The translations under genes and the position numbers were made by a program. A DNA stretch of 64,000 nucleotides from Kiritimatiellia bacterium (GTDB taxonomy: Bacteria > Verrucomicrobiota > Kiritimatiellia > CAIVKH01), in assembly GCA_035327305.1 (NCBI GenBank), contig DAOLDL010000001.1, forward strand, positions 85,561 to 149,560, read 5' to 3'. The notes beneath the pieces were generated by a model. That model was given only the letters and a program-made list of their open reading frames with translations. It did no database searches and was not told where the DNA came from. Below are positions 22,743 to 26,648 of this stretch, piece by piece. Position 1 is the first letter of the stretch. Each line of letters starts with the position of its first letter.

Positions 22743-25700
22743 TTAGTCCGCCAGCCTGACCCTCGCGCGATACCAGTGCGTAGTCATGGTTCCTGCGGCG
22801 GGATACATGTATGGTCCGCTTCCCCCCGAAATATTGGTGATGGCTTCCAACCAGTCCGTGTCATCGCCATTATGGCGCTCCAACTGGTATATCCTTCCAT
22901 GAATCGTGGAAAACCAAAGCAATCCTGATCCGTCCATGTTTACGACAAATTGTGAATCGTGGTCGGTCGGGTCGGTTCCGGCGATGTATTCCTCTAGGTT
23001 GGTCATGCCATCGTCGTCCGCATCCTGATACGGCATGGAAAGGTTGCCGGTTTTTCCGGTCGGTGATCCAAAATGCCCGGTCATCCACCAGTCGGGTATG
23101 CCGTCGCCATCCGAATCCTGTCCTTCCGGCGCCGACACCTGCCACAATTCATTCCATGATCGTGCTATACGTACTTCATCGAAATGCACAAGGCCATTGA
23201 ATCCGGAGTTCGCGCCCGATGCCAGGCGAATGCCGTCAATTCGTGCGATGATTCCCGTGACCCCAAGAAGGAACAGGGGTTCCGATTCGGGAATTGCGGC
23301 AACATTTGTAAAGTAGATACCGGACATGATTCGCGTATCAAAATCGTAACGACCCACCAACTGATAATCCACCCCCGCCGGAAATGAATCGGGACTCCCA
23401 TGCACTCCCTGGGAAATCCCCGAAATAGAGACGCCAAATATGTCGTCATTTCCACTGGAGCCACGTTCACCTACGAACGCACGTTCAGTAGCGCCATCAA
23501 AAAAGCTTACACCGCTGAATTTGCCGTCGTTGAGTCCCTCGGCATGTTGCCGTCGGTATAACGTCGCCACATAGATGCGACCATTGGTCACTGCATTGAA
23601 TTTCCTGAAAGCGGCATAAAGCGACGGATTGGTAGTGGCGAAAACAAGGCGGTTGCCCGATTCCTGCGGCCAGGCCGAAGGAAAATTACCGAAATTGCCG
23701 CCATTGATGACGACATCGGTGTTCGTCCGAGGAACAGTAATCGTCCATGCGTTGGTCCATCCGAGTCCGCCCATGAGACCCGAAGGAATCACCGCATTGG
23801 TGTAGGCAAAACTCTCGACGATCGCACCGATGCGATACATCTCCGTGGTTGCAACTGCCGTTATGGCAGGCGAGTAACGATCGTTATTAATCGTGTAGAA
23901 TTCGTAAAAATGTTTTGTGCCCGGGGCCACAACATGTTCAAGGTTGGTAACATTGACCGCACCTGAAATCTTGAAAAGAACGTGGCCGGCTCCCAAAGGA
24001 CCGCCGGCATGATACGTGACGCCGTTGGCCGGACTCACGTCAGGTGGTGTTTCGCTTCGATAAACGATCAGTACGGTGCGTCCCTGTGGTTCGGAAAAGC
24101 TCAACCGCACCATCTCCGCGCCATCGTGCACCGCTGAAACGGATGAGGGCGAAGGAATATTTGTTATTGTTAATGTTACCTCCATGTATGCGGGATTGTT
24201 GGTCTGGTTGCCGTCGATACGATTGGTGGCGATGAATACTCCGGTTTCCGTGAAGGATGCGCTATTTACGAAAACGGTATGGACGGCGGAGCCTCCTGTC
24301 ACAACACTGAAATTGGTCATACTGGTTCCCAGCCAGCCGGAAGGACCTGATCCATACGAGAAATGATGATCACCGAACAACATACCGGTTCCAAAATTGG
24401 TGATGACGATGGGTTGGCCGGCCGGAATCGGATTTCCGCCCAGCATGGCGGAGAAGGTTATTTGCAATGGTTCAACGCCCAATCCGGGCGCGGACACACC
24501 GCCCGTTTCGAACAGCACTTCCTCGCCGTAAGCGATGCCCGCGCTGTTGATCGCGTACGCGCGTGTATAATAAACAACTCCTGAACTTAATCCCGTCAGC
24601 GTGTTGGTGAACATACCCAAACCGGAGCCTGCGGCGTTCCGAAAATCGTTGGTCGTTGGCAACGGCAAAGTGTTCCATACAACTCCGCGTTCGATGACCG
24701 TCGTGCCGCCGTCGTCAATTACCTCGCCACCGCCTTTGGCCGCGGTTTCGGTTATCTCCGTTATCGGCGCGGTGACGACACTGGCCAATCCGGGTTGCGG
24801 TGCGCCTGCCGGTGGTTCCCTGGTGAAAATCTGCATGCTGTAACGGCCCATGTTCACGTAGGCCGCGCCTCCTGACACGATCAACTGGGTTGTGCCGATG
24901 TTCCCGAAATCCGCCTGGTAATTGGTGGAATCTCCATTGTAATGACTGTACCAGACGCCATCAGATGGAAAGGCAATCGAGTAATTGTTATTGGTCCAGT
25001 TGATGTTCGCGAAGTTCGCCACCACCACGGCGTCGTCGGTTTGTCCGCCGGCATCCCACCGGATGTAGGCGATTACCTTGTTGTTGTTATCCACATGATG
25101 CACATTTATCCCGGTGCCTTTCAGCCCCTTGGATCCACCGCGCAAATTGCGTCGGACATGAATCAGGTCCGTGTAGGATCGTACGATGCCGCTGAACGAG
25201 TTGGTTCGGGTCCATCGCAACGGCACGTTATCGTGAAAGGCCTGTGTCTCAAGCATTTCCTGACCTTGAAAGATCATGGGCATGGCGGGCGCCGTCATCA
25301 CAATTCCTGCCGCCAGCAGTGATCGTTTACGCGCCCAGATACTTTCCGGATTTCCGGAGTCTATTTCCGACGGCAAGCGGCTTCGCCCGTGATTCGATGC
25401 GATATAATCATGCGCCTCGGAAAACAGCACCCGGTTGAGACTTGCCCAATCCCGCAAAAGATTGCGAACTGTGAACATATTGCGGTTGGCGTCCGAACCC
25501 GTTGTGACCTGGCCATGCAACGACCAACGCCCGGCGACATCCCATTGTCCTTGAAAATTCATGCTGTAATCGAATGCATTGTCTTCGGCAATGCGTTGGA
25601 CATAGGGGTAATTTTGCTGAAGGTGCCAGTTGATGTCGCGCAACATGTGTTCACCGGTTTGATTGTGTCCCCAGTCACTGTTGATAATGTAATATGGGGC

Positions 25701-26648
25701 ATCCCACCGGAAACCGCCGATACGATACTCGAGTACATACATCATGATTTGATCGCGAATGAAGTCACGCACCTGTGACCGCCCGTAATCCGGACGGGTG
25801 CTTCCCCAAGGTGTGTGGGCGCGTGTGTCGTTGTAAAAGTAGATTCCGCCATAATTGCCCTGCCACCATCCGTCAAATCGCCACAGCGAGAGATCGCTTG
25901 GCCCATAATGGTTGTGAACGACGTCCACGAACACAGCGATATCCCGTTCGTGGCAGGCCCGGACAAACCGTTTGAATGCGTCCGGTCCACCATAAGCGCT
26001 CTCGATGGCAAAGAGGTCGGCGGGGTTATAGCCCCAGCTTTGGCCGCCCGCGAACTCGTTGACGGGCATCACCTTGATTGCATTGATGCCGAGATCTTTT
26101 ACGTGATCGAGATAGTTGGTGGCATGATCAAACGTTCTGGGCGTTGGCGACCCGGCAAACGTACCGATATGCATTTGATAAATTACCGTATCTTTACGAC
26201 CCGGTTTGGGTATTTCCACGCCCCCCCAGTTGAAGGCATTGGTATGATAAATAATAGAATTTCCATTCGCGCCGGAATTGGTGACGCGGCGTGATCGCGG
26301 ATCGCGCCTAAGCGACGTATTGTTGATACGGTAGCGGTATTGCTGTCCTTCCAAAGCGCCCGGGACATCCAGTGACCATTGACCGCCACCTTCAGTCACG
26401 AGAGGTATGTCATTCCACCCGCTGAACTCACCCCGCACGTCCACATTGGTGGCGTTTGGCGCCCATACCCGAAACGTGACCCCCGTGCCGGCGCCATCGG
26501 CATATGGGATCGAACCCAGTCCCGGACGCGAAGATTGTGCGGAAGACACGTTGGAGGTAATCAACCATACACCGGCACAACAAAATATAACCGAAAAACC
26601 CCTGAAAAAAAGGACGGCGGCCATCTGAAAACGAAGTGAATAAATCAT
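22743..26648 (-). CDS. Secreted multidomain GH13 enzyme (CBM48 + GH13 catalytic, trehalohydrolase/branching-enzyme-like; FN3-like, BACON-like and unknown domains; conserved C-terminal module)
   Basis: FRVWAPNA (CBM48), WGYNP, VDVVHNHYG, GFRWDAP (nucleophile D), IAED (acid/base E), EAHD; signal peptide after M at 26648 or 26624; C-terminal DxDxDG motifs. Confidence 0.88.
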   Translation of the reverse strand: MIYSLRFQMAAVLFFRGFSVIFCCAGVWLITSNVSSAQSSRPGLGSIPYADGAGTGVTFRVWAPNATNVDVRGEFSGWNDIPLVTEGGGQWSLDVPGALEGQQYRYRINNTSLRRDPRSRRVTNSGANGNSIIYHTNAFNWGGVEIPKPGRKDTVIYQMHIGTFAGSPTPRTFDHATNYLDHVKDLGINAIKVMPVNEFAGGQSWGYNPADLFAIESAYGGPDAFKRFVRACHERDIAVFVDVVHNHYGPSDLSLWRFDGWWQGNYGGIYFYNDTRAHTPWGSTRPDYGRSQVRDFIRDQIMMYVLEYRIGGFRWDAPYYIINSDWGHNQTGEHMLRDINWHLQQNYPYVQRIAEDNAFDYSMNFQGQWDVAGRWSLHGQVTTGSDANRNMFTVRNLLRDWASLNRVLFSEAHDYIASNHGRSRLPSEIDSGNPESIWARKRSLLAAGIVMTAPAMPMIFQGQEMLETQAFHDNVPLRWTRTNSFSGIVRSYTDLIHVRRNLRGGSKGLKGTGINVHHVDNNNKVIAYIRWDAGGQTDDAVVVANFANINWTNNNYSIAFPSDGVWYSHYNGDSTNYQADFGNIGTTQLIVSGGAAYVNMGRYSMQIFTREPPAGAPQPGLASVVTAPITEITETAAKGGGEVIDDGGTTVIERGVVWNTLPLPTTNDFRNAAGSGLGMFTNTLTGLSSGVVYYTRAYAINSAGIAYGEEVLFETGGVSAPGLGVEPLQITFSAMLGGNPIPAGQPIVITNFGTGMLFGDHHFSYGSGPSGWLGTSMTNFSVVTGGSAVHTVFVNSASFTETGVFIATNRIDGNQTNNPAYMEVTLTITNIPSPSSVSAVHDGAEMVRLSFSEPQGRTVLIVYRSETPPDVSPANGVTYHAGGPLGAGHVLFKISGAVNVTNLEHVVAPGTKHFYEFYTINNDRYSPAITAVATTEMYRIGAIVESFAYTNAVIPSGLMGGLGWTNAWTITVPRTNTDVVINGGNFGNFPSAWPQESGNRLVFATTNPSLYAAFRKFNAVTNGRIYVATLYRRQHAEGLNDGKFSGVSFFDGATERAFVGERGSSGNDDIFGVSISGISQGVHGSPDSFPAGVDYQLVGRYDFDTRIMSGIYFTNVAAIPESEPLFLLGVTGIIARIDGIRLASGANSGFNGLVHFDEVRIARSWNELWQVSAPEGQDSDGDGIPDWWMTGHFGSPTGKTGNLSMPYQDADDDGMTNLEEYIAGTDPTDHDSQFVVNMDGSGLLWFSTIHGRIYQLERHNGDDTDWLEAITNISGGSGPYMYPAAGTMTTHWYRARVRLAD

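Follow-up and report, generated by a model that had tools for sequence, protein, structure and literature searches.

A secreted GH13 protein with a C-terminal tag

The analyzed stretch, hereafter the window, comprises 64,000 nucleotides of a Kiritimatiellia bacterium (assembly GCA_035327305.1, contig DAOLDL010000001.1, positions 85,561 to 149,560 of the forward strand), and the gene in question lies on its reverse strand at 22743..26723, encoding a predicted secreted, starch-degrading enzyme of glycoside hydrolase family GH13 in which the dipeptide Thr-Asn (TN) is far more abundant than the composition of the protein would lead one to expect. The source assembly has a size of 3.27 Mb in 156 contigs, and its 2405 open reading frames (ORFs) were called crudely. 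The gene and its parts are as follows:

22743..26723, (-): the gene as a whole, encoding a secreted enzyme in which CBM48, GH13 and Amy_C are followed by accessory domains and the C-terminal tag, 1326 residues, 23 TN
26544..26648, (-): probable signal peptide, read from the translation as MIYSLRFQMAAVLFFRGFSVIFCCAGVWLITSNVSSA with a putative cleavage site before QS
24789..26543, (-): CBM48, GH13 barrel and Amy_C, residues 61-645, 7 TN
23196..24788, (-): accessory region, residues 646-1176, predicted to be all-beta, 14 TN, the core of the TN signal
24506-24788 of the window, (-): FN3-like domain of about 95 residues, residues 646-740
22746..23195, (-): C-terminal tag, residues 1177-1326, two TSP3-type Ca-loop repeats and an FN3-like beta tail of about 70 residues with the end WYRARVRLAD, 2 TN

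If translation starts at the ATG at 26648, as assumed in a preliminary description of this DNA, the product has 1301 residues. The Pfam models Alpha-amylase (PF00128, 64 bits), CBM_48 (PF02922, 50 bits, residues 69-137) and Alpha-amylase_C (PF02806, 39 bits, residues 543-629) all match the focal protein above their gathering score, and the four GH13 signature regions are legible in the translation (VDVVHNH, GGFRWD, RIAED, SEAHD). With the catalytic Asp nucleophile, the Glu acid/base and the Asp stabiliser in these regions, the product can be classified as a GH13 member of predicted activity, and the closest solved structures in the PDB are those of TreZ and GlgB. The accessory region is composed of the FN3-like domain followed by an Ig/FN3/jelly-roll-like all-beta unit of about 425 residues. 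The nearest relatives of the FN3-like domain are repeat arrays in secreted giants of Bacteroidota, some of which carry sorting domains of the type IX secretion system (T9SS), and this kinship suggests that domains may have been exchanged between the phyla. Residues 1177-1326 match the full length of tag profile A1 (5.7e-39), and the two DxDxDG-type repeats followed by a beta tail of about 70 residues at the extreme C-terminus mark the protein as a member of the tag family, for which neither Pfam nor NCBIfam holds a model (PF18884 stays under its cut-off on the focal tag).

The composition of the focal protein (95 Thr and 89 Asn) leads to an expectation of 6.4 TN, while 23 are observed next to only 4 occurrences of the reverse dipeptide Asn-Thr (NT), a recount identical to the hand count of the preliminary description. 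This excess is beyond the composition-shuffled expectation, as none of 20000 shuffles reaches 23 (Poisson P = 2.9e-7) and NT is not enriched, and of all 400 dipeptides TN alone stands out in this protein, the runner-up having P = 0.005. Within the protein, the accessory region holds 14 TN versus 3.27 expected (P = 9e-6), residues 61-645 hold 7 versus 2.44 (P = 0.013), the tag holds 2 versus 0.48, which is not significant (P = 0.08), and residues 1-60 hold none. The earlier statement that TN is distributed over all domains, the GH13 barrel included, was overstated, since five of the seven TN of residues 61-645 belong to the flanking CBM48, linker and Amy_C parts and the barrel proper (residues 180-545) contains only 2 versus 1.1 expected, one of these being the pair T507-N508 that is kept in 97 of 120 homologues. 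Most TN sites were correctly placed outside of N-x-S/T sequons, with which only 2 of the 23 overlap. Likewise, the SNF2-like protein encoded at 9388..12687 lacks TN altogether, and the small exported proteins at 6318, 16830, 42926 and 59497 have 0-1 TN as described; as the expectation for the latter is just 0.3 to 1.5 TN, single proteins prove nothing and it is the genome-wide aggregate that bears the weight.

Distribution of the TN excess across the genome and the class

The tag, in which two TSP3-type loops are followed by an FN3-like tail of about 70 residues (...GRxYxL...[ST]TNL..W...RxYRV), terminates 38 proteins of the genome. It is matched 6 to 136 times per genome in 20 relatives and is also present outside Kiritimatiellia in other classes of the phylum, with 28 matches in genome G024 and 21 in genome G028. 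If the proteome is split by the presence of this module, TN exceeds its expectation more than any other dipeptide in the 38 proteins whose terminal tag is complete by the profile, with 497 occurrences versus 223 expected (observed/expected ratio, O/E, of 2.23), as against an O/E of 0.92 in all other ORFs below 1000 residues. A tagged set defined by BLAST (43 proteins) contains 552 TN (O/E 2.14). That the order bias argues against a plain richness in Thr and Asn, as was proposed, is borne out by the other dipeptides of the tagged proteins, which stay close to or below expectation (NT 0.91, SN 1.03, TD 1.06, VN 0.85, IN 0.77). Small tagged proteins of less than 600 residues are TN-rich as well (2.6 to 3.4). 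Untagged ORFs of at least 1000 residues reach 1.73, and this is due to giant surface proteins, some of which are cut by contig ends. The excess is thus confined to tagged proteins and to untagged giant surface proteins, and ordinary signal-peptide and cytoplasmic proteins are without it. Two giant ORFs adjoin each other on the forward strand of contig C31, one of 4779 residues at 101-14440, which is cut by the contig end and contains 95 TN versus 43 expected, and one of 3848 residues at 14800-26346 with 61 TN versus 33 expected.

Several trivial causes were considered and rejected. A motif or mutational bias at the DNA level was discarded, since ACNAAY occurs 726 times in frame 0 versus 34 to 129 times in the other five frames; being enriched in the reading frame only, it points to an effect at the protein level. 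A codon-pair effect was rejected as the cause because the share of ACC before AAY is alike in cytoplasmic genes (64% vs 67%). Local co-richness in Thr and Asn was rejected on the O/E of NT, which at 0.9 is not enriched, and a single repeated motif on the 236 distinct xTNx tetrapeptides among the 552 sites. The TSP3 repeats supply 45 of the 552 TN, and the O/E after masking them is 2.05. As a side observation on codon usage, C-ending codons are generally favoured before Asn codons in the whole genome, and ACC makes up 64 to 67% of the Thr codons before Asn versus 46% in other positions, which holds for cytoplasmic as well as for exported genes.

The distribution among lineages was studied with TSP3-bearing giant ORFs from relatives, in which the repeats were masked. 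The giants of 12 genomes from other Kiritimatiellia families contain 364 TN versus 139 expected (TN O/E 2.63, NT 0.82) and those of one genome from the source's own family 89 versus 33 (TN 2.66, NT 0.87), as compared to 131 versus 177 in giants from other classes of the same GTDB phylum (TN 0.74, NT 0.71). The tagged proteins of two further Kiritimatiellia genomes have TN O/E values of 2.71 and 1.95. Altogether, large TSP3- or tag-bearing surface proteins rich in TN occur in 14 of the 15 sampled Kiritimatiellia genomes, with an O/E of about 2 to 5. The sole TN-poor lineage sampled in the class is genome G054 from another family, which is flat with 0.78 over five tagged proteins and 0.86 in the sixth (48 TN versus about 60 expected in the six tagged giants together). 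Tag-bearing cargo outside the class, 24 proteins from six genomes, contains 75 TN versus 82 expected (0.92). The proposal that TN belongs to the cargo of an export pathway as such does not hold, since cargo with the same tag shows no excess in other classes and in G054; the tag and the TN trait are therefore separable. Secreted FN3-rich giants of Bacteroidota, retrieved with the focal FN3-like domain, have a TN O/E of 1.10.

A different domain repertoire as the cause of the contrast between lineages is weakened by a comparison within one and the same domain. Within the tag profile of 129 positions the TN O/E is 3.49 in 45 Kiritimatiellia tags, 1.48 in 27 tags of other classes and 1.10 in the six tags of G054, and columns 88-89 read T-N in Kiritimatiellia and T-D in the others. 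A comparison of 120 GH13 homologues, mostly from Kiritimatiellia, shows a TN O/E of 1.38 for the catalytic part, or of about 0.96 minus one conserved column, which alone provides 97 of the 324 TN found there; their accessory parts reach 2.41 (NT 0.56).

Such conserved columns could point to historical hitch-hiking, in which a few domain families that happened to contain TN became numerous in Kiritimatiellia, the dipeptide itself being under no selection today. Besides the single GH13 column, this would be consistent with the unit of about 425 residues formed by focal residues 746-1170, which is repeated at least 5 times in the two giants of contig C31 with TN columns in common. We nevertheless consider it very improbable, as proteins of unrelated architecture from 14 genomes, which belong to different families, show the excess, the sites have 236 distinct four-residue contexts, and additional TN have arisen at new columns of a tag domain that the TN-poor classes share.

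Context, structural position and conservation of the TN sites

The flanks of TN show a hydrophobic alternation of the beta type, with hydrophobic residues at -3, -1, N+2 and N+4 and a depletion of charged residues at -2 and N+2. At -1 it is aromatic and hydrophobic residues that are over-represented and at N+2 V, L, W, M, F and I, while -2 has fewer D and E than expected (0.41 and 0.40), the favoured context being hydrophobic-T-N-x-hydrophobic, or [T>S]-[N>Q] at the dipeptide itself.

A first AlphaFold2 model of focal residues 646-1326, built from 8 sequences, reached a predicted local distance difference test (pLDDT) score of only 59, and 3 of 10 TN lie at strand ends versus a background of 15%, which is not significant (P = 0.18). 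Structural mapping was performed with a model of the homologue P0009 (90 sequences, pLDDT 89), onto which 782 TN occurrences in 79 columns from the accessory part of its family were placed. In this model strand interiors are nearly free of TN, each of the offsets -5 to -2 from the strand end accounting for 0.1 to 2.6% of the pairs, as against 5 to 7.5% of all positions and 5 to 11% of the other Thr. The maximum is reached where the Thr precedes the strand end by one residue (25.8% vs 7.5%), and TN is also frequent in the loop after the strand, at offsets +1 to +4. The TN sites are thus located in beta-sandwich accessory domains, at the point where a beta strand ends on its C-terminal side and in the loop behind it.

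Marks of selection are seen in comparison to two orthologues of 68% and 62% identity, in which the Thr of TN is kept at 17 of 23 sites (74%) versus 33 of 72 (46%) for the other Thr. Ten of the 23 focal pairs are kept in both orthologues, on par with structural dipeptides containing Gly. Among the 32 TN columns found in the focal protein and the two orthologues taken together, 13 are private to one protein, which shows a turnover of TN sites by gain and loss. Several TN columns are also common to paralogous repeats with no more than 32 to 44% identity. Where the GH13 accessory region has conserved TN columns, Ser takes the place of Thr in 96 of 165 cases and Val or Ile rarely do so, and the Asn gives way to Gln, Ser or Glu. 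Conditioned on the columns, Thr and Asn co-occur 1.23-fold more often than expected, the largest absolute excess (NT 0.96). That the coupling exceeds the column frequencies and that the Thr of TN is more conserved than other Thr also speaks against a mere multiplication of TN-containing domains. Thr-Asn is thus a lineage-specific, order-specific and positively selected surface motif of extracellular, tail-tagged Kiritimatiellia proteins, situated at strand-to-loop junctions. The preliminary description had called T-N a selected acceptor motif: the selection stands, by conservation, the exchange of Thr for Ser and the coupling of Thr and Asn, and the role as an acceptor is a plausible hypothesis, although no enzyme tracks the trait cleanly.

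Candidate readers of the motif and alternative explanations

The presence of the excess in one class and its absence from the same domains in sister classes is hard to reconcile with fold physics alone and favours a class-specific reader. We infer that a class-specific, trans-acting factor of the envelope that reads T-N is the most economical reading. That T-N serves as a modification sequon, most simply for O-glycosylation of the Thr, is a view to which we assign somewhat less than an even chance. As a best guess, a periplasmic or surface glycosyltransferase would O-glycosylate the Thr with the Asn as +1 determinant, and the glycans would cover or protect those domains of secreted enzymes and giant surface proteins that have no catalytic role. 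Leading, unproven candidates for such an enzyme would be four TMEM260-like (DUF2723) membrane proteins of the genome with 950 to 1049 residues, which combine a GT-C and a TPR domain. In its full form the proposal is a tentative one, clearly short of even, and describes an as yet undescribed modification system of Kiritimatiellia, most simply a GT-C/TPR-mediated Thr O-glycosylation, with a bare TN sequon at the strand-loop junctions of beta-sandwiches and dozens of sites per tail-tagged extracellular enzyme or giant surface protein, which would form a bacterial counterpart of the domain-specific O-mannosylation of eukaryotes. The candidate genes are located as follows:

C13:18179-21313, (-): TMEM260-like GT-C + TPR gene (o742), co-directional with and 140 bp downstream of a tagged TN-rich gene at C13:21453-24560 (-)
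C4:30356-33208, C21:20652-23798 and C116:166-3315: further TMEM260-like GT-C + TPR genes
14503-16365 of the window, (-): PMT_2/ArnT-type GT-C glycosyltransferase of 620 residues (PF13231, E = 1.4e-22)

The o742 type was found in 14 of the 14 TN-rich genomes tested, with 42 to 67% identity, and is absent from 7 of the 11 TN-poor genomes. Classical N-glycosylation is unlikely, because STT3/PglB/AglB (PF02516) had no match over the cut-off in the genome itself and in 19 relatives, with archaeal controls matched, and because only two of the 23 TN overlap N-x-S/T. The motif of the Bacteroidota type, D-(S/T)-(A/I/L/V/M/T), does not fit either, the +1 residue being Asn and D/E being depleted at -2.

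A number of observations weigh against a modification of the Thr. Untagged signal-peptide proteins of less than 600 residues are neither enriched in TN nor do they avoid it (O/E 0.87 to 0.88, compared to 0.88 to 0.91 in the mostly cytoplasmic set of the same size range without signal peptide), and it is in such proteins that a sequon of general use in the periplasm might have shown up. The alpha/beta catalytic cores of nine tagged enzymes of the genome contain 18 TN versus 13.6 expected (1.33), as compared to 123 versus 53.4 (2.30) in the remainder of the same enzymes. Other xN pairs also peak just after strands in the P0009 model; the position of the Asn is therefore conventional and the preceding Thr the unusual part, and, since structures commonly favour an Asn right after a strand, the signal may in part be structural. 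The solvent exposure of the TN sites is presumed from secondary structure only. Regarding the enzymes, the adjacency of o742 and a tagged gene recurs only in genome G031, so that synteny with the cargo is not conserved, and the o742 type, with 28 to 41% identity, is also present in 4 of the 11 TN-poor genomes (G054, G024, G028, G025). The o987 type of GT-C protein does not track the TN trait, the PMT_2 family occurs throughout the relatives, whether they are rich or poor in TN, and the phyletic-pattern search as a whole, covering STT3, TMEM260-like proteins, two GT-C paralogues and PMT_2, revealed no clean correlate of the trait. In the literature searched on a T-N motif, on glycosylation in Kiritimatiellota and on bacterial TMEM260 homologues, nothing relevant was found.

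The same points bear on the alternative that T-N is a structural motif only, that is a strand-terminating or capping pair in which Thr is the last strand former and Asn starts the loop with hydrogen bonds between side chain and backbone, settled on during the expansion of the accessory domains in Kiritimatiellia and read by no factor. This would agree with the gathering of TN at strand ends and in the next loops, where Asn generally peaks, with the beta-type alternation in the flanks, with the enrichment in beta-sandwich domains and its weakness in alpha/beta cores, with the lack of an enzyme that tracks the trait cleanly, and with several TN columns common to paralogous repeats of 32 to 44% identity, which are kept like structural positions. 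However, fold physics is universal, and yet the same tag and similar TSP3/FN3/Ig-rich giants have O/E values of 0.7 to 1.5 in sister classes and in Bacteroidota. Moreover, the beta-branched V and I are not enriched before N (VN 0.85, IN 0.77), the replacement of Thr mainly by Ser indicates that the hydroxyl is favoured over strand propensity, and the many sporadic TN columns private to single lineages imply a continuing gain. On balance we regard a purely structural origin as unlikely, if far from implausible.

A reader that does not modify the protein is rather improbable in our view; TN might then confer resistance to the lineage's own secreted proteases, serve to contact a capsule or surface glycan peculiar to the class, or form a site for a likewise class-specific chaperone or assembly factor of extracellular beta domains. 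The limitation of TN to extracellular tagged and giant proteins, its class-specific excess and its position in loops and at strand ends would all be compatible with such a role, and the genome encodes tagged S8 subtilases. Avoidance of proteases should nevertheless deplete several motifs instead of raising one dipeptide two- to three-fold, no such depletion is seen, and no candidate partner was identified.

If T-N is indeed a modification sequon, it shares features with several known systems. The general O-glycosylation of Bacteroidota likewise relies on a short, lineage-wide motif in exported, unrelated proteins with a Thr/Ser hydroxyl at its centre, which is read there in the envelope. It differs in that here Asn follows the Thr and Asp/Glu is depleted at -2, in that the Bacteroidota motif covers periplasmic and outer-membrane proteins as well, whereas the TN excess is found only in tagged or giant extracellular proteins, and in that its modification is proven, whereas that of TN is hypothetical. 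The tag resembles the C-terminal domain of T9SS cargo (Por_Secre_tail), both being small beta domains at the C-terminus of dozens of unrelated secreted enzymes, but there is no sequence relation and an export pathway for the tag is only hypothetical. Surface proteins of archaea are N-glycosylated and dense in the sequon N-x-S/T, which is read by AglB/STT3, probably for shielding. Similar to the TN proteins they are extracellular and carry many copies of a short motif; the difference is that here the Thr precedes the Asn instead of following at +2, and that STT3, AglB and PglB are missing from the 20 genomes tested.

A further parallel is the domain-specific O-mannosylation by the eukaryotic GT-C enzymes TMEM260 (IPT domains) and TMTC1-4 (cadherin EC domains), which resembles the proposed modification in that Thr is the acceptor and lies in beta strands of Ig-like extracellular domains. 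TMEM260 of eukaryotes attaches O-mannose to a Thr in the initial beta strands of Ig-like IPT domains, at the degenerate sequon Px6Px3Px2GGx3T (bioRxiv 10.64898/2026.09.21.753134). The TMEM260 and TMTC enzymes consist of a GT-C membrane domain and a TPR-type luminal domain, and the four GT-C + TPR proteins of the genome are alike in this respect. The TMEM260 sequon is, however, confined to one domain type, whereas T-N occurs across many, and the bacterial TMEM260-like homologues are without known substrate and occur in TN-poor genomes, too. The parallel is meant as an analogy of mechanism and not as evidence of membership.

As an acceptor or recognition motif, T-N would be the shortest bacterial sequon known and would define a novel modification system of a general kind in a little-studied lineage of the Planctomycetota-Verrucomicrobiota-Chlamydiota (PVC) group that degrades polysaccharides. 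Its sites would be readable from the sequence, with hundreds predicted per genome, it would account for the stabilising or shielding of large arrays of secreted enzymes, and it would be relevant to the heterologous expression of carbohydrate-active enzymes and sulfatases from Kiritimatiellia. The TN-rich and TN-poor lineages with a common cargo tag, including G054 within the class, offer a natural contrast for finding the responsible gene. If T-N turned out to be only structural, it would still represent an unusual, class-wide and order-specific dipeptide preference that is missed by standard composition models.

The window contains a second tagged enzyme of the GH13 family, which is also rich in TN:

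54709..58146, (+): tagged GH13 enzyme of 1145 residues, 20 TN versus 6.3 expected, 9 NT

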